Assembly: GCA_964387845.1 (NCBI GenBank)
Contig: CAYLXA010000001.1
Location: 1 to 64,000, forward strand
DNA from: an uncultured bacterium
GTDB taxonomy: Bacteria > Omnitrophota > Omnitrophia > Omnitrophales > Abzuiibacteriaceae
Length of the DNA stretch: 64,000 bases
Direction: 5' to 3'
In this document: one piece after another, positions 12,442 to 38,803 of the stretch
How positions within the stretch are numbered: position 1 is the stretch's first letter
Layout: the number at the start of each line of letters is the position of its first letter
The notes under the pieces: model-generated
Seen by the model: only the letters and a program-made list of their open reading frames with translations
What the model was told of the DNA's origin: nothing
Database searches by the model: none
Position numbers and translations under genes: made by a program

Positions 12442-13479
12442 ATGATGAGCGCGTGCCTGGCTTTATGCCTCGCGCTCACTTCATGCACAATTTGGCACCC
12501 GATTCTCCCGAGCCAGGATCCGCCGCCGAAACTACCGCCTCAGATTCTAAATTATTATGATTATCCGAAAGCGCCTTACGAATCCGAAGTCATCGAAGAA
12601 AAAGAAGAAAAGAATTACATTTTCAGACAGGTTGAAATCCCGCTTCATTTACCCGAAGACGCGCAGCTGAAACCGCTCGAAGAGTGGAAGCGCGAATATC
12701 ACGACATCAAGCCCACCAATGAGAAAGGTGCGCGCGACCTGAAGCTTCATTTCGTGAACCGGCTGGATATTTATCTGCCGAAGAAAAACCGTCAAAAACG
12801 CCCGCTCATCATCATTTCGCCGATTTTGGGCGGCAACATGGTCGTCGATATCTTCGCGAAATATTTTGCGAAACACGGTTATGTGGCGGTGATCGTCAAC
12901 CGTAAAAAGTCTTTTTACGACGAATCGTTGGGCGGCACGGAGCAAGTTGAGAAATATTTACGCAGCTCCGTCATCCGTCTTCGCCAAGCCATTGATTGGC
13001 TCGAGGTGCAGCCGGAGGTTGATCCGGACCGGATCGGCGCATTCGGCATCAGTTACGGCGCAGTCTTGCACAGTATTTTGGCGGCCATGGAGCCGCGCAT
13101 CAAAGCACACATCCTCGCGATGCCTGCAGGCGACCTGCCGGATGTCATTATGGACTGCCCTGACGGCGGTGTCCGCAAACTCGTCAAACACGTGGAAAAA
13201 ATGGGCTGGTCGCGCGAGAAAATTTATTATTCGCTAAAAGACACCATTCGGACCGATCCGATGCGCTTTGCGCCTTATGTTGATAAAAACCGAATTATGA
13301 TTTTTGCAACACTCTTTGACCGCGTGGTCGGAACTTCGCGCATTTTTAAATTATGGAACGAAATGGGGCGTCCGAAACTCAAAACCATGCCGGTCGGTCA
13401 TTACGGCGCGCTGCTGGTTTACCCCTACCTCGAGTGGGCTTCCCTACGCTTTTTCAAGTCCCGCCTGAAAGTCGTTTAG
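12442..13479 (+). CDS. Alpha/beta-hydrolase (dienelactone hydrolase/S9-like) lipoprotein
   Basis: Lipoprotein signal 'LALTSC'. The 'GISYGA' GxSxG nucleophile elbow follows a beta-strand, and His is near the C-terminus. Confidence 0.55.
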   Translation: MMSACLALCLALTSCTIWHPILPSQDPPPKLPPQILNYYDYPKAPYESEVIEEKEEKNYIFRQVEIPLHLPEDAQLKPLEEWKREYHDIKPTNEKGARDLKLHFVNRLDIYLPKKNRQKRPLIIISPILGGNMVVDIFAKYFAKHGYVAVIVNRKKSFYDESLGGTEQVEKYLRSSVIRLRQAIDWLEVQPEVDPDRIGAFGISYGAVLHSILAAMEPRIKAHILAMPAGDLPDVIMDCPDGGVRKLVKHVEKMGWSREKIYYSLKDTIRTDPMRFAPYVDKNRIMIFATLFDRVVGTSRIFKLWNEMGRPKLKTMPVGHYGALLVYPYLEWASLRFFKSRLKVV

Positions 13480-15916
13480 CAAAGACTCAAAATTGAAGTG
13501 ATGGTACTCGGTTTCAGAGGCCGGCAATTCATCGGTGGCATTCGCCACCCAAAATTCGGGAAATTGATACACCACACTTTGAATATTGGAGTCGGGCGCA
13601 ATTGCCTGCGCGATTTTTCTCGCGATTTCGGGGTCAATTTTTCCGTAATTTTCGATCACAAGCTCGCCTTGCTTTTTGTAGCGTGTTTCATAAGCGCTTC
13701 CGGCCGGAAATTCGAGACCGGGCTTTTTGGGATTGCCTTTCGCGCAAGTCTGCAGATCGCGGACCTGCTGGTCCATCGCCGCATCAGCTCTCAAAAGCGC
13801 GTTTTCAATCGGCATTCCGTAGCTCGCTGCTTTTTCCTTCGGATCATTGTCACGAAAAACCTGAAAGTGATTCGCAGTGGTTTCAATAGCGACAGCTTCT
13901 TTTTTCTTCGCATCTGCAATCATATAATTGAAGCCGCTCGTCCGCGGATTGAGCGTAATGATTTTCTCCGCCGTTTCCAAAGAATCGGCGTTCTGCAGAA
14001 TGCGTTTTAAGAGAAACGGCATCGGCGTTCCTTTGAACGTTTCATCAACCGAATCAGAGCCGACTTGTCCGACCGAAATTCCCTGCTGATTCACGCCCGA
14101 TAAAACGCCCGTAAAGCCGTAATAACCGATGTTCGCGTACGGAATTCCGTTGTCGGGTTTATGGACCATGATAGCCGCCAATCGGTGAACGCCGATGTCT
14201 TTGACCCAATCGAGGTTGCGGATGTGGATTAATTTTTCGCCTTTCGTGGCTTTTCCGAAATAAACGCCGTTGGCACAGAACGATTCGATGTAATCCGGGA
14301 TCGCGTGCAGCCGCTTCACTTCTTTGAATGAAAGTCCTGAGCCGTCGGCAAGACCTTTCATTTCCATCAGTTCACCATATGTCACATAAGGCGCCATCTT
14401 TTTCCAGGCGCGGTTCAGGCGCCATTTCAGAATCCATTTCGAAATGCCCGGAACATAAAGCAAGCGGTTGAGGTAACGGCTGATTTGTTTGTCTGCGGCC
14501 CGGATTTCTTTTTTCATAAGACTTCCGTGCTGAAACCCCATTTCATACGCGCTGCCGTGTAAATACAAAACAGGAATTAGGCCATCGCGGACCAAAATTC
14601 CCTCTTTTGATTCTTTTTTCGAAATTGAATTGAGCAAGCGGTCAAAAGTTTTGTAGAAAAAGAGGTCAAATTTTTTTCCGTAGAAACTCGCGCGGGATTC
14701 ATACTGAGAAGAATCCAAGTAATAACGCTCCGGAATCACGTAGCCCAAGTAATCGTTCGCGTAACCGATTGCAAGCAGCATCAGCTTGCGTGCGTTCATG
14801 AGATTCTCGATTTCGAGCCCAACCTGCGAAGAAGCTTCCGCCGGAAGCGCCGCAAAACCGAGCTCGCCCATTCGGAAAACTTGAAATTCCGATCGGCGCG
14901 GGAAAAACCGGTTTCCGATGACAGGCGGAACACGCAAAAATGATGCGCGCAGCTTGACGCGCGGAAGCCTTGTGCGTTCGTGCGCCGATTTCCATTCGCC
15001 GCTTGCATCCACTTTTTTGAACTGGATAGACTTGATCTTGCTTTTGACGGCTTCTGCATAGAGCTTCATCTTTTTTTCAGGATAATCGGAATCAATACCA
15101 CTCGGGCGCAAATCACCGGAAGCGCCCTGCGCAAACAGTGCGACTGATCCGGGATTCTCGGTTTCCAAGAGTTTCGCGAGCTCGCCGGCGTAATCGGCCG
15201 AAAAATGCCGGTTCATTTTTTTGAGAATGGTTGGATGAGCGCCAAAAAGAACGATTTGAGAAACCAGCCCGTGACCTTCACCGTAAAATCTCACGGCTTT
15301 TACAAGTTCGGGGACTTCAATTTTCTCATCCATCCGGTTTTCAATCAATTCACCCGCATCGATTTCACCGTACTCGATGCGTGAGACTTGCGTTTCATTT
15401 TGAACCGCGAGCACGATGCTTTCTGCAATTTTGTCGGTCGTGAATTCAAAGACCTTGCGGTCAAATCCGCCGCCGATGAACCTTTGCCAGAACCGGCTGC
15501 CGATGGCACCTGTTCCCGAATGCGTGTGCGTCGCGAATATCATCACATGCGATTCAGAAAGGTGCCTGGCACCATTTTGGGCGCCTGGCACCGTCTGGGC
15601 GTTCACTTTTTTGACAACGGATTTTTTCAAATTGGAATCAATGAGGAGAAGATCCGCCGACACAAACACAAACGTTTCTCCGTCTTTTGTAACACTCAAG
15701 GCTCTTGAAAATAGCGGATCGAGAACACCCTTAGACGGCTTTCCGCCCCGCTTACCGTATCCGGCAAGCGGCGTCCCGATGGGCGGCGTAATCTCAATTT
15801 TGGCCGCACCGGCAAAAATCTGGCTCTCTTCGGCAAAAGATTGCTCAGGCAAGCACAATAAGACAAGCAATAGAAAAATGTATATGACGCTAGGACATTT
15901 TAACAACGAAGACATC
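13444..15916 (-). CDS. Secreted two-domain amidohydrolase: neutral/alkaline ceramidase N-terminal domain fused to a peptidase C45 (acyl-CoA:6-APA acyltransferase-like Ntn hydrolase) domain
   Basis: Signal peptide 'KCPSVIYIFLLLVLLCLPEQSFA'. 'AAKIEITPPIGTPLAGYG' and 'ATHTHSGTGA' match the ceramidase family. The C-terminal half ('FCANGVYFG...IRNLDW...IGYYGFTGVLSGVNQQGISVG') matches C45. The ORF track's upstream extension to 16218 is rejected. Confidence 0.55.
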
Positions 15917-16187
15917 GACGAAACCGCGTCTGGAGGCTGCCCGAGCATGGTGGCAAGAATGGGCTTCTCATCCAGCACCGGCACTCGAGCCGCTCCTGCG
16001 GCGCCTCGGTGCCTTCGCTCTCGCTCTTGGGACTTCGCCTTCGGCGAAGACCAAGCTCCCAAGAGCTCCGAGAGATGCTTCTTGAGAAGCCCATTCTTGC
16101 CGAGGGCAGCTGGAAGTCGAGTGAGGATTTCTCGCTGGGAAATCCGAGCGTCGGTAGAGTCGATTGTCTGAGTTAAGTTAAAATGTC
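15894..16187. repeat. GC-rich ~300-nt repeat element with terminal inverted repeats (copy X); overlaps the start of the amidase gene
   Basis: It begins 'gacattttaacaacgaagac' and ends 'gttaaaatgtcc'. It is alignable at roughly 60-65% identity along its length with 59085-59386, with shared blocks (cgcgtctgRagg, ggaagtcgagtgaRga, gagcgtcgg, gtctgag). Confidence 0.6.
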
Positions 16188-16299
16188 CAAAAAGGTCCTT
16201 TTTTATCTGATCGGCCATCTGAAGTTCCTCGCCTTAAAATAGTGCCATCTGTTTTGCTCATCTTCAAGCGGCTTTAAGCCAAACTTCTCTTGTGTTACA

Positions 16300-27039: not shown

Positions 27040-27215
27040 CAAAGATCGTGGCGGATCCGCTAAGCAGTGTGGCGGAGGTAAACTAACTGAAAAGTTGGGG
27101 CGCAAAGCAAGAGGTCCGAAATGAAATTAAAAGGATGGCTCGGCTGCCGAAATTCATATTCAGAATTTGGAATAAACGCCCGTACTTTTTAGTACGGGCG
27201 TTTATGTTTTTATGG
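27040..27215 (+). promoter_or_regulatory. Candidate c-di-GMP-I (GEMM) riboswitch with an intrinsic-terminator expression platform in the 5' leader of the pilin-like gene
   Basis: 27071-27106 'GGCGGAGGUAAACU-AACU-GAAA-AGUU-GGGGCGCAAAGC' matches the GEMM core 'GGCAAACC-stem-GNRA-stem-GGGACGCAAAGCC' with identical spacing. A 13-bp perfect hairpin plus U-tract sits at 27174-27212, and the ATG is at 27226. Confidence 0.5.
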
Positions 27216-27225
27216 AGAAAAACGG

Positions 27226-28218
27226 ATGAAGCAAAAAAAGTTGGGTGTAACGCTGGTTGAAATCATGATTGTGGTTGCCATCATCGGTATAGTGGCAGCA
27301 TTCGCAATCCCCAACTATCTACGTTCAAGGCAAACAGCCGATACCGCTTCTTTGGAACAAACCGCACGTCAGATTGCGCAAAAAATGGAACAAATTTTCT
27401 GGGGCCAGAATCCAAACGAATATCCGCCGGAATTGTCGATGCCTTCCGGGCTTGTCACGTGGGCTGCGCCAACCAACTTGGGCAATATTCAAGATTTGCT
27501 TGAATTGCTCAAGAAAATTTGTGAACAACAGGGTAAAAGCTTGTCATCCGGCCAAATCGGAGATTTGACGGCCTCTGAAATTGCTGCCGATCCCGAAGCC
27601 ATGCAAGCGCTCGTTGAAACTTGTTTCCAGAACAATCCGCCACTAACATACACAACACCGGCCGGCGGACAAACCTATTTATTTTCTGTGTCATCACCCA
27701 ATGGAACCAACTACACGGCAAGCCCGGGCGGCGTCAGCCAAACGCCTCCCGATTGCACCGGTGATGCCGGATGCGATGACGGTGTTTATTGCAATGGTGT
27801 TGAAACCTGCCAGTACGGAAGCTGCCAGGCCGGAATTAGTCCGTGCGACGAAGGATATACCTGCCACGAATCTTATCAGGAATGTACTGAGGGCATCTGC
27901 GGAAACGGTATTTGGGAAGGTTATGAAGAATGCGGTGAAGAAGATACGGGATTTAGTTATGAATTCATGGAATGCATTAATTGCCGCTGGGAATTCGTCG
28001 GCTGCCCAGAGGGTTACTATTTCTACGACTGGGCATGCTATCCATCGCCGCCCGACTGCCCATCAGGCTCTTACAAACAACCCGGTCTCGGATGCTGTTG
28101 GCCCGATCCCGGCATGCCGCCGTGGCCAAGACCTATTCAACTGCCTACTTGCGGAGAAGTCGCTGAAGTAATCCCGGATGGCGGCGGGCCCCCTCCGATG
28201 GACGACCCGTCATTTTAA
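27226..28218 (+). CDS. Prepilin-type (GspG/type IV pilin-like) protein with a large Cys-rich C-terminal domain
   Basis: N-terminal 'KKLGVTLVEIMIVVAIIGIVAAFAIPNY' class III signal/methylation motif. The C-terminal 160 aa contain about 30 Cys in CGNG..E.CGE-type repeats (myxobacterial Cys-rich-repeat-like). Confidence 0.75.
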   Translation: MKQKKLGVTLVEIMIVVAIIGIVAAFAIPNYLRSRQTADTASLEQTARQIAQKMEQIFWGQNPNEYPPELSMPSGLVTWAAPTNLGNIQDLLELLKKICEQQGKSLSSGQIGDLTASEIAADPEAMQALVETCFQNNPPLTYTTPAGGQTYLFSVSSPNGTNYTASPGGVSQTPPDCTGDAGCDDGVYCNGVETCQYGSCQAGISPCDEGYTCHESYQECTEGICGNGIWEGYEECGEEDTGFSYEFMECINCRWEFVGCPEGYYFYDWACYPSPPDCPSGSYKQPGLGCCWPDPGMPPWPRPIQLPTCGEVAEVIPDGGGPPPMDDPSF

Positions 28219-29525: not shown

Positions 29526-30779
29526 TTGCACATGAAAACTTCAAAAAAATATGGTTTAACGCTGGTTGAAATTGTGATTGTGGTAGCGCTCATCGCACTT
29601 GTTTCAATGATCGCAATTCCCAACTTTATGCGCAACCATCAAACCGCCAATTCACAATCTTTTGCTCAAACCATTAAACAAATTGCCCAGAAACTGGAGT
29701 TGATATTCTGGGGCCAGAACCCAAACGAATATCCGCCCGTATCCGCCTTTACAAACGGCCTGCAAACCTGGGCAGCGCCTACGAACCTCGGAAACATCGA
29801 GGATTTGGAGCGGCTTCTTCAAAAAGCATGTGAAGAAATTCTAAAACAAAATTTCAGCGCGGCTTCTCTCAACGATCAAACAGTATTTGCCCAGGAACTC
29901 TTTAATTGCCTTGACGGGCATGTGATTGATTATATTGTCACCGAAGACTTACAAAATTATTGGTTTAATTTTGCGGATCCATACACGACCGGCTATTACA
30001 GCATCGGAAATGGTTTTAGCGAACCTAAATACAACGATCCCGTAGTGCCGGCTCCTCCGCCTCCTCCGCCGCCAGCTTGCGGAAACGGCATTGCTGACGC
30101 AGGAGAGTTTTGCGGCGAGCCCCAATTTCCGGGCTGTCACGCAGGTACAACCTGCATTAACTGTCAATGCGAAGCAATAGCAGGCTGTGGTGGCTTCTCA
30201 GGAGGAAGCTGTAATCCTAATTTTCCATCTACCTGTCCGCCCGGATATTCTTGCCATGCACAATGCCGCCAATGCGTGTTCAATAATTGGAACCCTACCG
30301 GGGGCGGCAGCTGTTTTGTCGGTGATACGCAAATTTTGATGACGGACGGAAGCACAAAAGCCATTAGCGATATTCAGGTAGGCGATCAAGTCGCCAGCTA
30401 TAATGAAGAAACTAAAACGGTGGTAGTATCAAAGGTTGATAAATTACTAATCCACGATCCGGAAATTTATTGGATCATCAACGATCGAATCAAAGTAACG
30501 CCGAACCACAGCTTTTATATTGACGGAAAATGGAAGCATATTGGACAAGCTGAGCTGGGTGACAACATGCTCAAGCATGACGGAAATCAGGAAGCTATTG
30601 TAAAAATGGAACTAATTACTATTAAAGAACCTATTTACAACTTGGAAATTCAGGACACGCACACCTACTATGCGGAAGGGGTCTTGGTACATAATGCAAT
30701 CAAGGGGTATACTCCCGGTTGGACGCATGGAAACATGGACGGAATTGAAGCGCCGGACGGTGATGGGGACGGCGGTTGA
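29526..30779 (+). CDS. Prepilin-type (GspG-like) protein with a Pro-run, a Cys-rich module and a C-terminal Hint (intein-like/BIL) autoprocessing domain
   Basis: N-terminus 'KKYGLTLVEIVIVVALIALVSMIAIPNF', paralogous to 27226. The Hint domain lies at nt 30312-30695. Confidence 0.75.
   Translation: MHMKTSKKYGLTLVEIVIVVALIALVSMIAIPNFMRNHQTANSQSFAQTIKQIAQKLELIFWGQNPNEYPPVSAFTNGLQTWAAPTNLGNIEDLERLLQKACEEILKQNFSAASLNDQTVFAQELFNCLDGHVIDYIVTEDLQNYWFNFADPYTTGYYSIGNGFSEPKYNDPVVPAPPPPPPPACGNGIADAGEFCGEPQFPGCHAGTTCINCQCEAIAGCGGFSGGSCNPNFPSTCPPGYSCHAQCRQCVFNNWNPTGGGSCFVGDTQILMTDGSTKAISDIQVGDQVASYNEETKTVVVSKVDKLLIHDPEIYWIINDRIKVTPNHSFYIDGKWKHIGQAELGDNMLKHDGNQEAIVKMELITIKEPIYNLEIQDTHTYYAEGVLVHNAIKGYTPGWTHGNMDGIEAPDGDGDGG
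30312..30695 (+). other. Hint/intein-like domain (blocks A, B, F, G) inside the pilin-like CDS
   Basis: The intein/Hint splicing blocks are present: 'CFVGDTQILMTDGS', 'TPNH' (TxxH), '...YNLEIQDTHTYYAEGVLVHN'. No endonuclease domain is present, and the +1 residue is Ala. Confidence 0.75.
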
Positions 30780-34055: not shown

Positions 34056-34895
34056 TTATTTCGCGGCGGCTGTTTCCGGCGCAGAGCTTTTTACAAGCAA
34101 GCCCCAAACGACGAACAGATAGATGCCGTAAGCACTGATTTCCACTAATGAAGGATTGCCATTATAACCAAATAGGGCTTTTAAGAACGAGCCGACGCCC
34201 TCTTTTTCATTGAGAATGTGATTGATGTCCCATACATGTTCAATTACAGGCGGAATCCAGTTAATTTCATGCAGTTCGTGAATACCGTACGCCAATAGGC
34301 CCGCCGCTACAAAAATCAGGAAAAATCCCGTGCCGCGGAAGAGCGGTTTTAGCGGCACCCGCTTCCCCCATGCAAAGATCGCAAACGAAATCAAGACGGC
34401 AAGTCCGAATCCTGTAAATCCGCCTATAGCAGAAACCGTTCCGGAATTTTGAAGCGCAACCGCTTTTAAAAACAAAACCGTTTCAAAACCTTCCCGAATC
34501 ACCGCCAAAAAAGGCAGTGATACGATCGCAAAAAGTTCCGAATTGGAAACAGCGCTTTCGAGCTTCGATTCAATTTCAGGACGTATGCGCTTCGCCTGTT
34601 TGTCCATCCAGAAAATCATATACGTAAGCACGCCGCAGGCCAAAATTGAAATACCGCCTTCAAGCGCTTTGGCCGCAACTCCTTCCAGATTCTCGGTCAT
34701 CATATCCAGCGTCCATGCAAGCCCAAGGCTGGCGATCAGCGCTGTTAAAATGCTGGCGCCCACATGCCCCGCATAGCGCATCGCTTTCATGCGATACAGC
34801 AGCGTTAAAATAATTCCGACAATGAGCCCTGCTTCCAAAGTCTCACGAAAAACCACCAAAAAAGTTGACGCCAACACACCTTCGTTCATGACCAA
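34056..34895 (-). CDS. efeU: FTR1/EfeU-family high-affinity iron permease
   Basis: Two REXXE motifs ('FRETLEAG', 'IREGFETV') in a 7-TM protein. Confidence 0.75.
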   Translation of the reverse strand: MVMNEGVLASTFLVVFRETLEAGLIVGIILTLLYRMKAMRYAGHVGASILTALIASLGLAWTLDMMTENLEGVAAKALEGGISILACGVLTYMIFWMDKQAKRIRPEIESKLESAVSNSELFAIVSLPFLAVIREGFETVLFLKAVALQNSGTVSAIGGFTGFGLAVLISFAIFAWGKRVPLKPLFRGTGFFLIFVAAGLLAYGIHELHEINWIPPVIEHVWDINHILNEKEGVGSFLKALFGYNGNPSLVEISAYGIYLFVVWGLLVKSSAPETAAAK

Positions 34896-34903
34896 CTCCT
34901 CAT

Positions 34904-35491
34904 TTAATCTTTGGTTAATACAAAGCGAACCGGAATTTTAACCCACGACGCAAACCGGACACTTCCGACGTGAGCGGGGCTGAACTGCCATTTCCAAATG
35001 GTTTGTACCGCCGAATCATCTAAAATCGTAAAACCTGAGCTGGATTCCACAATCACTTGACTCACTTTCCCGCTATCTTCCACATGAACGCGCAGCACCA
35101 CCAAACCTTCCCACCCGCGTTCGCGCGCATAACGCGGATACGCAGGCGCCGGATTCCGAAGGTATAACGGGTCATTCTCGCGAATCGCCCGCGCTTCCGT
35201 TTCCACCGGCGCTTCCTCAGGTTTTGGTTCCTCTAACTCTTCCTTTTTCTCTTCAACTTGCGGTAATGGCTCAGCCGGCTGGATAGCCGTTAACACTTTT
35301 TCGGGTTCTGCTTTCGGCTTTTGAATATCGGGAACAATCCGGACCGCGATCGTGCTCACGCCCTGGTCTACGGAAAACTCCGGCTTCAAATCCATCAAAC
35401 CCGCGCCGGCAAATGCCGCCAAATGCGCGGCCAGTGAAGCCGCCAGAACCGGTTTAAAAAAATCGTGTTTATAGGAAAAGTGGATTTTCAT
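34904..35491 (-). CDS. tonB: Energy transducer TonB
   Basis: N-terminal anchor, Pro/Glu/Lys-rich spacer ('EPKPEEAPVE') and a C-terminal TonB domain. Confidence 0.75.
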   Translation of the reverse strand: MKIHFSYKHDFFKPVLAASLAAHLAAFAGAGLMDLKPEFSVDQGVSTIAVRIVPDIQKPKAEPEKVLTAIQPAEPLPQVEEKKEELEEPKPEEAPVETEARAIRENDPLYLRNPAPAYPRYARERGWEGLVVLRVHVEDSGKVSQVIVESSSGFTILDDSAVQTIWKWQFSPAHVGSVRFASWVKIPVRFVLTKD

Positions 35492-35889
35492 TTCTTTTGA
35501 CCGTCGTGAATGATATTGATTTGCGAAGCGCCCGCTTGCCGCGCGGAATCCATGACTTCCACAAACAAATGATATGGAATTTTTTCATCACCGCGAAAAT
35601 GCACCGATTTGTCATCGCTAGCTGCCAATTTTGATTCCACCACGGGCTTCAAAGACTGCATCGGTACTTTTTGATTATTGACGAAAATCGATCCCTTCTG
35701 ATCTGCGCTGATCACAATTCTCTCTTGCGGGATGTCATCTTCTATCGAAGCCTTGGGAAGCGTGAGTTTCAAAGCGGGGCTTAAGAACGATGAGCTCAGC
35801 ATAAAAAAAATAAGCAGCTGAAACACGCAGTCAATCAGAGGCGCCATATCGAGCCCAAGTCCGACTTTTTTTGCGCGGATAAAATCCAT
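35488..35889 (-). CDS. exbD: Biopolymer transport protein ExbD/TolR
   Basis: 133 aa with a single TM helix, 'APLIDCVFQLLIFFM'. Confidence 0.8.
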   Translation of the reverse strand: MDFIRAKKVGLGLDMAPLIDCVFQLLIFFMLSSSFLSPALKLTLPKASIEDDIPQERIVISADQKGSIFVNNQKVPMQSLKPVVESKLAASDDKSVHFRGDEKIPYHLFVEVMDSARQAGASQINIIHDGQKK

Positions 35890-36572
35890 CAGGCCGTCAC
35901 TCCAATGTGCTCAGGTTCAACGTCAAAATCTTCCGCTTTGAAATTCTTCTCTGACTGTTTTCCAAAAAATTCATCCAAGTCCAGAACGATATACTGCATC
36001 CGGCGTGCAATTTTATCCGCGCGGCTTTCGAAAGCATGATAGGCCGCCATACAAGGAATCGCCACAACAAGCCCAAAAACCGTGGTGGTGAGAGCCTCCC
36101 AAATTCCGGACGCTAAATCGCCCGGATTAACCTGTCCGCCCAAAAGCTCAATCGCATGAAACGCGCTGACAAGGCCCGTCACAGTGCCCAACAATCCCAA
36201 AAGTGGTGCGATATGCGTCAGCGCCGCAAGCGCACGCAGCCGCTGCTCCACCTTTTCGAGCGCGAGTGAACCCTCGCGCTTCAGGATTTCGCTGCGGATT
36301 TGATCCTCTTTTAAATTGAGAAGGTACTTTTCCGCAATTTTGGCAACCGGATGGGATGACGATTTGCACAGCCGCATTGCATTCTTTAATTTCTTCTTCT
36401 TGAGCTCGGATTTCAACGCGGAACTGAAGCTTGCATAATCAAACCGGAGCCGCAAAAAATAAATCCCCCGCTCCACAATGATGGCAAACCCCACGATCGA
36501 GCAGACCAAGAGCGGCCACATCGCGAAACCGCCCTTTCTGAAGAGTTCAATCAGAGTTTGATCCCAAAACAT
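35889..36572 (-). CDS. exbB: MotA/TolQ/ExbB proton channel
   Basis: 227 aa, 3 TM helices, 'LGLLGTVTGLVSAF' pattern. Confidence 0.8.
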   Translation of the reverse strand: MFWDQTLIELFRKGGFAMWPLLVCSIVGFAIIVERGIYFLRLRFDYASFSSALKSELKKKKLKNAMRLCKSSSHPVAKIAEKYLLNLKEDQIRSEILKREGSLALEKVEQRLRALAALTHIAPLLGLLGTVTGLVSAFHAIELLGGQVNPGDLASGIWEALTTTVFGLVVAIPCMAAYHAFESRADKIARRMQYIVLDLDEFFGKQSEKNFKAEDFDVEPEHIGVTA

Positions 36573-36586
36573 ATTTTTTACCTTTC

Positions 36587-38803
36587 TTAGTAACCAGTCT
36601 TTGCGCTTGCAGGACTTGCAGGATTGGTCTCGCCCGGCAATCCCAAACTGATTTTAAATCCGCCATAGACATTTCGGTCATTGGCAGGATCGATTCCGGC
36701 GCTTGTAACACGCGCATAATAGTTTTCATCAAATAGATTGTTGACGCCTCCGAATAAACTCAGATCAAAAGCATCCCACGCATCCTTGACCAAAACCACT
36801 TCGCCGGTTAAGTCCCAAACCTTATAGGACGGAACCAAACGATTAGGCGTCAATGCATCATCGGCGTATTGATCATCCACAAAAGTACTGAGGATGCTGA
36901 TTTTAACTCTGTCCTTAAAATTATACGTGCTGCCAAACCGCAGAAGATAATCCGGCGCGTACTGAGGCGACTTGCCTTTGTTAGGACCTTGGTCAAATTC
37001 CGCGTCGAGCAAGGTCAGCGCGATAAAAGGCGAAAAAGAACCGATCCTGTTTTCCAACTCGGATTTATTCAGGAAGTCATACAAGCCGACAATGTCGACT
37101 TCTGTGAAAAGCTCGACCCCTTGGTGCCAGGCATCGCCGACGTTAGAAATAGTATTGCCGACTGTTCCGACCTGATCTGAAAAATCCAAGATGAAATAAT
37201 TAATATCCCAGCTCAGAAATGAAAATGGCTCGCCGCGCAAACCAAAATCATACTGTTTCGCAAAACCATCGCTAAGATCATTATCAACAACTTGGTTAGT
37301 TCCAAGCGGCACGCTATCGGCAAAGATTTTAGGCCGGTACGATTGTGACAAATTGATATAAGCCTCCACTTGTTTCACAATTTCGTAGGCAATCCCTAAG
37401 CCGAAAAGCGGAACGGCGCGATGGTCTTTTGCATCCGCAAGCGGAACGGTGGTTTTATCGGCGTTGTATTCCTCATGGATTCTTTGCCAAATATTCTCAA
37501 TACGGACACCGGGCGTGATTGACAACTTTCCGATTCGAAATAGATTTTCCAAAAATACCGAGAGATACCAAAGGCCCCTAAAAACTTCCTTCCGGACAAT
37601 ACCGCTTTCCGCCATCGGATTTGAAGTCCGGCCTTCTACTCGTGGTGAGTGACTGAGAAAAGTATGCGTGCCGGCTGTTAAAGTATGCGTCTCGCCGAAA
37701 AGCTCATAATCGTGACGCACTCTGGGCTCGAAGCCGATATTGTAAAAGTCTTGCTCCTGAATATCGCTCGTTTGGGCTGCCGCTCCGGTTGGCACCGTTC
37801 CGAATCCGCCGCCTCTTTGACGCGTACTCCAACGGCGATAATGGCCGCCGTAGGTCCGCCAATCAAACTGCGTATCCTCTGAAAATTCTTTTTCATAAAT
37901 TAAAGAACCATAATAACGTTCGAGCCTGAAACGATCGTGCTCGCGCGTTGAAAAATTGCGGTTCTGCTCATATGTCGGATTGGCGGTTGTGCTTAAAGAC
38001 AATCCGCCCGGCTCGCCGTGCTCTTCGTGATATTCATCGTAATTAAATGTGAGACGCGAATCGCTCGTTTGATTGAGAACCACTTTAACGCCGGAACTAA
38101 TCACTTCAAAATCACTGTTTGTTTGGCGAAAACCGTCACCCTGCCGTTCATGAAAATACGCGTAATAACCCATCGGACCAACGGTACCGGTTGCGGCATT
38201 GTAAGTTGAAAAATAATTGTCGGAACCAAAAACGTTTTCAGAATAAGTCCGAAGCGGCGTATCCAAGTCAGGCTGTTTTGTAATAAAGTTAAGCGCGCCG
38301 CCGGGCTGAGGGCCGTACATGAGTGCGGAACCGCCGCGAATGTATTCGATATTTTCAATCGATTGGAAAGGCGGTGTGTAATAGGCCTCCGGGTAGCCAA
38401 ACATGTCGGCATGAATCGGAATTCCGTCTTTCATGACTTGAATATATTGAGCCCGGTCCGGCGCAAGGCCCCGCGAACCAATGCTCACAAGCGGCGTTGT
38501 TTCTTCGCTTAGATTAAGCCCCGTTGTTTTCGCAAGAGCTTGGCGATAATTGTTGTTGGTAACGGGAGGAAGTTCTTCAAAATTTAGAAGCGATGTCTTC
38601 TTGCCGGCATTAATCGTTGTCCCTTGGACATCGGGCAGAAAGTTGCTCCGCTCTTCCGGTTTTTTGGCGGCAACCAACACTTCATCGGTTACCGGATCGG
38701 ACGAAGTTGGCTTTTGGACTGCCAAGCCTTCGTTCACTGAGAACAAAGATAAAATTAAAACAAACACTAACGGACGTACCAGCTTCAATCGATGCAAAAA
38801 CAT
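36587..38803 (-). CDS. TonB-dependent outer-membrane receptor
   Basis: Signal peptide, plug domain and 22-strand barrel-length protein (738 aa) with a C-terminal aromatic residue. It lies upstream of exbBD-tonB. Confidence 0.75.
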   Translation of the reverse strand: MFLHRLKLVRPLVFVLILSLFSVNEGLAVQKPTSSDPVTDEVLVAAKKPEERSNFLPDVQGTTINAGKKTSLLNFEELPPVTNNNYRQALAKTTGLNLSEETTPLVSIGSRGLAPDRAQYIQVMKDGIPIHADMFGYPEAYYTPPFQSIENIEYIRGGSALMYGPQPGGALNFITKQPDLDTPLRTYSENVFGSDNYFSTYNAATGTVGPMGYYAYFHERQGDGFRQTNSDFEVISSGVKVVLNQTSDSRLTFNYDEYHEEHGEPGGLSLSTTANPTYEQNRNFSTREHDRFRLERYYGSLIYEKEFSEDTQFDWRTYGGHYRRWSTRQRGGGFGTVPTGAAAQTSDIQEQDFYNIGFEPRVRHDYELFGETHTLTAGTHTFLSHSPRVEGRTSNPMAESGIVRKEVFRGLWYLSVFLENLFRIGKLSITPGVRIENIWQRIHEEYNADKTTVPLADAKDHRAVPLFGLGIAYEIVKQVEAYINLSQSYRPKIFADSVPLGTNQVVDNDLSDGFAKQYDFGLRGEPFSFLSWDINYFILDFSDQVGTVGNTISNVGDAWHQGVELFTEVDIVGLYDFLNKSELENRIGSFSPFIALTLLDAEFDQGPNKGKSPQYAPDYLLRFGSTYNFKDRVKISILSTFVDDQYADDALTPNRLVPSYKVWDLTGEVVLVKDAWDAFDLSLFGGVNNLFDENYYARVTSAGIDPANDRNVYGGFKISLGLPGETNPASPASAKTGY

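Follow-up and report, generated by a model that had tools for sequence, protein, structure and literature searches.

Introduction

Type-A bacterial intein-like (BIL) domains are Hint domains that end in His-Asn, a pair that is absent in type B, and that lack a nucleophile at position +1 (PMC4031507). Cleavage is their dominant reaction, and ligation is possible without a side-chain nucleophile when the freed amine attacks the thioester (PMC4031507; PMC7664689). Their hosts are non-conserved secreted or surface proteins. In BIL2 of Tetrahymena thermophila BUBL1, a eukaryotic and cytoplasmic domain flanked by ubiquitin-like domains, a lysine ε-amine attacks the thioester and forms an isopeptide, and the domain can conjugate its N-extein to other proteins (PMC8616854). 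Hint domains of the PT-HINT family (PF07591) occur in secreted polymorphic toxins of the MafB, CdiA and Rhs types (Zhang et al. 2012). Modular type IV pilins, such as PilB and PilC of S. sanguinis, consist of an N-terminal IPR012902 module and an extra module grafted via a linker (Raynaud et al. 2021), and the grafts characterised so far are stable and serve in binding or as enzymes, for example vWA, lectin and peptidase modules (PMC8179133). Here, we analyse a gene that joins a pilin-like N-terminus to a Hint domain. It lies on the forward strand of a 64,000-nucleotide stretch of DNA (the window) from an uncultured bacterium of the Omnitrophota (assembly GCA_964387845.1, contig CAYLXA010000001.1, positions 1 to 64,000), and was first noticed in a reading made from the sequence alone, without database searches (the sequence-only reading).

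The 415-aa protein consists, in order, of a prepilin leader, an α1 helix, a lineage-specific head, a PPPPPPP linker, a module with 12 cysteines, a 128-aa Hint domain and a 27-aa tail (Table 1). An alternative in-frame TTG start at 29526 lies upstream of the ATG at 29532, where the public copy of the protein (P0001) begins; from either start through 30779, the open reading frame is as the sequence-only reading described it. Residues are numbered here from the ATG, and the residue numbers of that reading are 2 higher.

This arrangement differs from each of the known systems. Unlike other type-A BIL domains, this Hint has a prepilin-type host and sits at the extreme C-terminus, with a C-extein of only 27 disordered residues; its clade often forms tandem arrays and carries a lysine within positions +1 to +3. 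Unlike BIL2, it is extracytoplasmic, and its N-extein is a pilin with a Cys-rich knob. A polymorphic toxin was rejected: although the protein shares PF07591 and secretion with these toxins, trafficking is via a prepilin signal, no toxin domain follows the Hint (only 27 disordered residues without a family match) and no immunity gene lies downstream. In the text of Zhang et al. 2012, the word 'pilin' has no occurrences and a prepilin signal is not mentioned (PMC3482391). In contrast to the grafts of characterised modular pilins, the graft here is a putative self-processing domain that acts in a single turnover and probably leaves the pilin. The predicted protein is thus neither a canonical intein nor a polymorphic toxin, and what appears to be new is the combination, in which a putative single-turnover self-processing module is grafted on a pilin with no cargo behind it. 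We consider it most likely, and probable rather than assured, that the gene encodes a modular type-IV-pilin-like protein whose Hint domain removes itself, possibly with ligation in cis.

The Hint domain

Block A of the Hint domain, CFVGDTQILMTDGS, begins at residue 261, block B reads TPNH at residues 323–326, and the domain ends in GVLVHN at residue 388. In Pfam, PT-HINT matches with 53.8 bits (E 3.1e-14, gathering score 27.7), and Hint, Vint and Hom_end_hint also score above their cutoffs. A sequence search of the PDB matched the whole length of the domain with solved BIL domains, namely Tetrahymena BUBL1 BIL2 (6Y75/6TMM, E 7e-13) and the type-A BIL of C. thermocellum (2LWY, E 6e-11, 32% identity). 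An AlphaFold (AF2) model of the Hint, built from a 43-sequence alignment, has an overall pLDDT of 88, with block means of 92–98 across the Hint. Foldseek ranked BIL2 first (TM 0.77–0.82), followed by the C. thermocellum BIL (0.72/0.83), mini-inteins and the Hedgehog autoprocessing domain (1AT0, 0.66/0.72).

The catalytic residues are conserved throughout the clade. In 43 aligned related domains, Cys1, the block-B His and the terminal His-Asn never vary, and the block-B Thr is conserved in at least 90%. Among 231 complete related domains, the first residue is Cys in 228 and the last two are His-Asn in 221, and none has Cys at +1. Here the +1 residue is Ala389, not Cys, Ser or Thr; in orthologues it is Ala, Gln or Lys. 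As Cys1, the TxxH motif and the terminal His-Asn are present and the +1 residue is Ala, we assign the domain to the type-A BIL domains, a definition that it fits on every criterion of sequence and predicted structure. It shares with the C. thermocellum BIL the mini-Hint fold, these three motifs, the lack of Cys, Ser or Thr at +1 and the lack of an endonuclease, for which its 128 residues leave no room.

Two other classes of Hint were rejected. The +1 Ala, the terminal position and the non-conserved 27-aa tail argue against a canonical (class 1) intein, and relatives without the Hint just end earlier. The Hedgehog-type Hog domain shares the fold, lies at the C-terminus of a secreted protein too, has a small residue before 'CF' at its N-junction and uses a thioester chemistry, as predicted here, that can pass the N-terminal part to a nucleophile. 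However, Hedgehog has no terminal His-Asn and has a sterol-recognition region, whereas this protein retains His-Asn and has only a disordered tail of 27 residues. The sequence-only reading had already recognised a complete Hint with all blocks, no homing endonuclease and no +1 nucleophile, and had placed it with BIL domains rather than canonical inteins, all of which the family matches and the structural ranking bear out. Its statement that splicing is not possible was too strong, as type-A BIL domains can ligate without a side-chain nucleophile (PMC4031507).

The pilin-like part of the protein

The protein starts with MKTSKKYG/LTLVEI (the slash marks the predicted cleavage site), with Gly at −1, Glu at +5, a short basic leader and a hydrophobic α1N, and MKTSKKYG/LTLVEIVIVVALIALV thus has the form of a class III signal peptide. 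The NCBIfam model for prepilin N-terminal cleavage and methylation (TIGR02532) reaches 18.3 bits (cutoff 16.3), and Pfam N_methyl is just under its cutoff (19.9 against 21.2). In a comparison with PDB sequences, residues 3–70 align with α1 of Geobacter PilA-N (1.7e-5), M. xanthus PilA, GspG and PpdD. The NCBIfam equivalog matches to GspG, PilA and ComG are confined to the α1 helix and far under their cutoffs, and an orthologue of GspG was rejected (TIGR01710, 24.3 bits against 88.85, residues 8–58 only). The prepilin-type N-terminus proposed by the sequence-only reading is therefore supported, whereas its description as GspG-like was overstated, since the N-terminal helix alone matches.

A conserved region spans residues 58–172 and contains the motif IFWGQNPNEYPP (residues 58–69, at the end of the α1 region), the motif WAAPTNLGNI and two conserved cysteines. 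Searches of Pfam and the PDB revealed no homology of the head beyond α1, and homologues were detected only within its own small family. The seven prolines occupy residues 175–181 and the 12 cysteines fall within residues 183–250. With an extra C-terminal module (Cys-rich plus PT-HINT) after a proline linker, the protein falls within the modular pilins as defined by Raynaud et al. The linker and the 12-Cys module had both been noted from the sequence; the label 'myxobacterial Cys-rich repeat' that was given to the module lacks profile support, as Pfam yields no match on the segment and only the paralogue P0005 has a match, sub-threshold, to DUF4215. Similar 'CGNGILE...' Cys-rich repeats are found in P0004, a non-pilin protein of 633 aa with an N-terminal transmembrane anchor, together with a Hint whose C-terminus is degenerate and lacks His-Asn, and the pairing of Cys-rich repeat and Hint thus recurs beyond the pilin family.

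A probably self-removing Hint on a modular pilin-like protein

In the reading that we favour, the protein would enter the inner membrane, prepilin peptidase would remove the leader and the C-terminal part would fold outside the cytoplasm. Cys261, aided by Thr323 and His326, would then carry out an N-S acyl shift that replaces the peptide bond between Ser260 and Cys261 by a thioester, and Asn388, aided by His387, would cyclise and cut the bond between Hint and tail. The thioester may then be hydrolysed, or the freed tail may attack it through the α-amine of Ala389 or the ε-amine of Lys391. In both cases, the Hint would be lost and the mature subunit would consist of the head and the Cys-rich knob, with the tail re-attached or not. 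Every residue that the N-S acyl shift and the cyclisation of Asn require is present and under selection, while there is no +1 nucleophile, no cargo domain and only a disordered tail. The Hint is more probably a single-turnover maturation or ligation module than a resident enzyme on the filament. The orthologue P0003 carries two tandem Hints, only 46% identical to each other, of which the distal one is the orthologue of this Hint (73% identity), and the presence of a second Hint fits self-removal.

Several points weigh against this reading. The reacting junction, and whether the product would be cleaved or ligated, are judged from relatives that are only 30–32% identical. Many inteins have Asp at position 4 of block F, where this Hint clade has Asn ('YNLE'). 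While the structure prediction that the sequence-only reading proposed gave a BIL-like model for the Hint alone, the full-length AlphaFold model, from 3 sequences, has a pLDDT of 36 and does not confirm a pilin fold of the head. Prepilin-type N-termini sometimes occur in proteins that were never shown in filaments, and the 64-kb window contains no genes for T2SSE, T2SSF, PilM, a secretin or the prepilin peptidase PilD. The position at the tip of a filament subunit that the sequence-only reading gave to the activity is hypothetical. Finally, plain self-removal leaves the benefit of the Hint unexplained, as there are paralogues without a Hint as well as a Hint-less positional equivalent, P0019.

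The lysine after the Hint and a possible conjugation in trans

The tail of the protein begins with A-I-K. Among the 221 related Hint domains that end in His-Asn, taken from the top matches, 179 (81%) have Lys within positions +1 to +3, and in 143 of them it is at +1; about 15% would be expected from a background Lys frequency of 5.1%. This enrichment is consistent, by analogy, with lysine-amine chemistry as in Tetrahymena BIL2.

The same lysines lead to a different explanation, in which the Hint resembles BUBL or Hedgehog domains and conjugates in trans: the thioester at Ser260-Cys261 would be resolved by an external nucleophile, such as a lysine, in an adjacent subunit or in a surface protein of a host or prey, or a hydroxyl of a glycan or lipid, to which the pilin's C-terminus would be covalently attached. 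We regard this as unlikely, though it is the strongest of the alternatives. The closest solved relative, BIL2, does perform such a reaction, and the N-junction, with 'CF' after a Gly or Ser at −1, is reminiscent of the G/CF site of Hedgehog. GDP-mannose pathway genes flank the pilin genes here, and another prepilin-Hint protein, P0074, adjoins a Wzy_C-family gene and glycosyltransferases; the linkage to glycosylation is, however, one to housekeeping genes and may have arisen by chance. Omnitrophota are inferred to be host-attached and reliant on type IV pili (PMC10066038). On the other side, the protein has no acceptor-recognition region, its tail being short, disordered and unlike the sterol-recognition region of Hedgehog, and the conserved lysine lies in cis, where it is equally compatible with intramolecular ligation. 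The strictly conserved terminal His-Asn argues for C-terminal cleavage as well, for which pure transfer has no need. A more specific form, which we hold to be slightly less likely again and whose chemistry would be that shown for BIL2, is that the Hint serves as a built-in, ATP-independent ligase whose thioester moves the pilin C-terminus onto a lysine, either in the adjoining subunit or in a surface protein of a host or prey, to form an isopeptide. The lysine by the C-junction would then be a vestige or a cis version of the ligase reaction.

Locus history and conservation

An exhaustive profile search of 1.84 billion representatives found the head domain in only nine, all from one syntenic slot, which trpS-scpA-scpB and a PGM/PMM gene border in four related Omnitrophota genomes (Table 1). 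A genome scan with the family alignment gave 43 pattern matches, none of which is a relative; for this gene, the GTDB representatives do not cover the lineage. Three of the four genomes, and three of the nine family members, carry the Hint. P0006, in locus L002, is the orthologue of P0005 and has the same position, and P0019, the Hint-less protein named above, sits in L092 where the pilin-Hint gene would be. P0005 itself has a larger Cys-rich module than P0001, and its C-terminal 'CGEVAEVIPDGGG', which loosely resembles Hint block A (C-x5-[IV]-x2-DG), may be either what is left of a lost Hint or a chance likeness. Directly 3′ of the double-Hint P0003 (L003, 9607–14145, +) lies a secreted-type subtilase of 1512 aa with Peptidase_S8 and BACON-like domains, which has no counterpart in the window.

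Table 1. Features of the pilin-Hint gene, its paralogue and the corresponding slots in related genomes.
Feature	Position	Strand	Evidence or content
Whole gene, modular pilin-like protein with C-terminal type-A BIL/PT-HINT domain	29532..30779	+	415 aa from ATG; exact protein in NCBI and Logan
Class III (prepilin) leader MKTSKKYG, predicted prepilin-peptidase site after Gly8	29532..29555	+	TIGR02532 above cutoff; G−1/E+5 pattern in sequence
Pilin α1 helix (hydrophobic α1N + α1C), residues 9 to ~70	29556..29741	+	Matches to α1 of solved pilins
Lineage-specific head, residues ~71–172, motif WAAPTNLGNI, Cys100/Cys126	29742..30047	+	Conserved in 9 representatives
Proline-rich linker PAPPPPPPPA	30048..30077	+	Sequence itself
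Cys-rich module (12 Cys, begins CGNGIADAGEFCGEP), then Gly-rich N-junction ...NPTGGGS	30078..30311	+	Sequence; alignment of relatives
Hint domain, type-A BIL/PT-HINT class, 128 aa, residues 261–388	30312..30695	+	PF07591, PDB BIL matches, AF2 model, Foldseek
Predicted catalytic Cys261	30312–30314	+	
Predicted catalytic Thr323	30498–30500	+	
Predicted catalytic His326	30507–30509	+	
Predicted catalytic His387	30690–30692	+	
Predicted catalytic Asn388	30693–30695	+	
C-terminal tail (C-extein), 27 aa, AIKGYTPGWTHGNMDGIEAPDGDGDGG; Ala389 = +1	30696..30776	+	Predicted disordered
Lys391 (+3)	30702–30704	+	
Paralogue P0005, 330 aa, same prepilin leader and head, Cys-rich module, no Hint	27226..28218	+	Profile scans, alignment
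Slot in the window			Hint-less P0005 and Hint-bearing P0001
Slot in L002			P0006 and P0002
Slot in L003			P0003 with two Hints, then 1512-aa S8 peptidase
Slot in L092			Three tandem members, P0044, P0081 and P0019, none with a Hint

This patchy distribution, the tandem copies and the occurrence of the same Hint clade in many unrelated extracytoplasmic proteins are what would be expected of a selfish or relic intein-like element, that is, a BIL that spread into pilin genes and persists by harmless excision, without a function for the host. Conservation points the other way, and we give this explanation little credence. By segment, identities to the two orthologues are 82% and 73% for the Hint, 71.5% and 48.8% for the head, 46% for the Cys-rich module and 50% and 37% for the tail, which makes the Hint the most conserved part of the protein and the tail the least conserved. 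In the Hint, pN is 0.10–0.15 and synonymous sites are saturated. As a functionless terminal appendage, with a C-extein of 20–27 aa, could vanish by one nonsense mutation, yet this one has been kept in three diverged genomes, the Hint appears to be under selection. It has no homing endonuclease, its base composition gives no clear sign of foreign origin (40% GC, against 44% in the head and 48% in the window), and for the family of pilins with an internal Hint (see below) our search found no Hint-less 'empty-site' homologue.

The C-terminal tail and the fate of the Hint

The tail of 27 aa after the terminal Asn, already delimited by the sequence-only reading, has mean pLDDT values of 67, 43 and 58 per block of 10 residues in the AF2 model, with a run below 50. 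It has no family match in Pfam or NCBIfam, and contains a motif, K-x-x-TP-x-W-x-x-GN, that is partly conserved in orthologues. The tail, or the Hint together with the tail, might be the product itself: as in pretoxins, the Hint would free the acidic tail as a peptide signal or effector, or would leave with it as a soluble product. PT-HINT is indeed the best Pfam family, and HINT has been described as a peptidase that sits immediately ahead of the toxin module and releases it (PMC3482391). The partly conserved motif might likewise reflect a released peptide, but the tail has only 20–27 residues, is disordered, matches no family and is the least conserved segment (37–50% identity), the other C-terminal Hints of the clade have tails of only 1–5 residues, and the next gene downstream is a convergent phosphomannomutase rather than an immunity-like gene. 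Such release is less probable still than a selfish element.

Conversely, the Hint fold might not react at all and might remain on the pilin as a knob with a structural or binding role. Modular pilins usually bear binding modules (PMC8179133), and the processing of this protein is a prediction; the retention of all catalytic residues, invariant across the clade, is however not expected for a purely structural role, which makes this quite improbable.

The weakest explanation, an artefact in which two genes were fused by a frameshift or by chimeric assembly, can be dismissed because the reading frame is continuous, a protein identical to P0001 is present in an independent Logan assembly and two orthologues from other metagenomes, P0002 (67% identical) and P0003 (43%), have the same unbroken architecture and the same synteny, so that three independent assemblies agree. 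The sequence-only reading had itself named a frameshifted fusion of two genes as what would overturn it.

Other prepilin-Hint fusions

Screening the 150 best matches with a Hint hidden Markov model and a regular expression for the prepilin motif (a G-F-T-L-I/V-E N-terminus) yielded at least 11 further cluster representatives that join a prepilin motif to this Hint clade. In a Pfam scan of ten of these fusions, PT-HINT was found in all ten and N_methyl exceeded its cutoff in six. They have two layouts: either the Hint is C-terminal with a short tail, as here, or it is internal and followed by a conserved C-terminal segment of 83–114 aa. When internal-Hint pilins were spliced in silico, NCBIfam matched the N-terminal helix alone. 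One internal-Hint relative, from Candidatus Omnitrophota, is named 'polymorphic toxin-type HINT domain-containing protein' by NCBI. P0016, a pilin with two Hints, shares its operon with genes for T2SSE, T2SSF and a further pilin, and its relative P0125 adjoins PilM. Linkage to pilus machinery is thus seen for P0016 and P0125, and not for the gene under study.

Dataset S1 of Raynaud et al. 2021 lists 'IPR012902 - PF07591' once, uncommented, among 264 modular-pilin architectures (PMC8179133), and our literature searches found no functional description of a pilin-Hint fusion. The co-occurrence of pilin N-terminus and Hint in relatives, which the sequence-only reading suggested looking for, is therefore real, while its remark that no example had been described holds for function and not for the architecture. 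The combination has been catalogued once, recurs in metagenomes and is uncharacterised; it is unusual rather than unique.

A few members of the wider clade have other architectures. Eleven proteins (P0010, P0032, P0042, P0065, P0067, P0070, P0084, P0094, P0098, P0107 and P0129) have a Sec signal peptide ending in '...FARGG(GG)', followed by 2–5 back-to-back Hints with junctions of the form HN/K-x(1-4)-C, an architecture for which we found no description. Among the five that were scanned, Tim44-like domains follow the Hints in P0010, P0042, P0065 and P0107, and a CAP domain follows them in P0084. As the N-extein of these tandem-Hint proteins would be about 5 residues after removal of the signal peptide, C-terminal cleavage or ligation must be their key reaction. 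In L094 (5100–12454, +, Omnitrophota), a two-gene cassette is duplicated, each copy with a pilin-like gene containing an internal Hint (417 and 393 aa) and a gene for a protein of about 750 aa that lacks annotation; the cassette may be a module of a pilin and its partner. P0074 (L086, 5614–10160) is a 719-aa prepilin-Hint protein with 14 cysteines before the Hint and a 5-aa tail ending in Cys. Its gene directly follows that of a Wzy_C-family protein of 767 aa, in a cluster of glycosyltransferase and polysaccharide genes. The Wzy_C family comprises O-antigen ligases and pilin O-glycosylases.

Genomic context

The DXS protein encoded in the window is 62–70% identical to those of Omnitrophota metagenome-assembled genomes only, with the next best matches at about 50%. 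The window is otherwise ordinary diderm chromosome, with LpxA, TonB/ExbBD and a TonB-dependent receptor, aromatic amino-acid genes and tRNA synthetases. The pilin-like genes of P0005 and P0001 are interleaved with manC and PGM/PMM of the GDP-mannose pathway, an arrangement that is the same in L002. A scan for promoters and terminators gave nothing decisive for the pilin-Hint gene. In the divergent intergenic region between trpS and the pilin genes, 20 nt upstream of the start codon of P0005, a perfect hairpin with a 15-bp stem (ATAAACGCCCGTACT-TTTT-AGTACGGGCGTTTAT; 27172–27205, +) precedes a T-rich run and could be a 5′-UTR regulatory element or a terminator.

Two further features of the window are unrelated to the pilins. 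A protein of 923 aa (13444–16218, −) combines the N-terminal domain of a neutral/alkaline ceramidase with an acyl-CoA:6-APA acyltransferase (AAT) domain, seemingly an unusual fusion in bacteria. An iron-uptake cluster (34056–38803, −) encodes a TonB-dependent receptor with a plug domain, ExbB, ExbD, TonB and an FTR1 permease, which confirms a diderm envelope.

Implications

The gene encodes a real, uncharacterised pilin-Hint fusion with a predicted chemistry and an architecture that is neither unique nor wholly unrecorded. What BIL domains do remains ill-defined, and modular pilins have only recently been recognised as a route to the diversity of type IV filaments. If the favoured reading is true, a pilin with a single-turnover, thioester-forming graft adds self-processing after export, and possibly covalent ligation, to the repertoire of pilus subunits. 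At about 230 residues without its pilin part, the protein is compact and suits the question of what a terminal BIL without cargo does. Hint domains of this clade, with a Lys after the His-Asn and with tandem arrays, are widespread in uncultured bacteria and seem to be unstudied. The host lineage, Omnitrophota, consists of ultra-small bacteria that are thought to depend on pili for attachment to hosts. If the Hint did act as a ligase, a type IV filament would be covalently cross-linked, or covalently bound to its target, and would be a diderm analogue of sortase-linked pili and thioester-domain adhesins.

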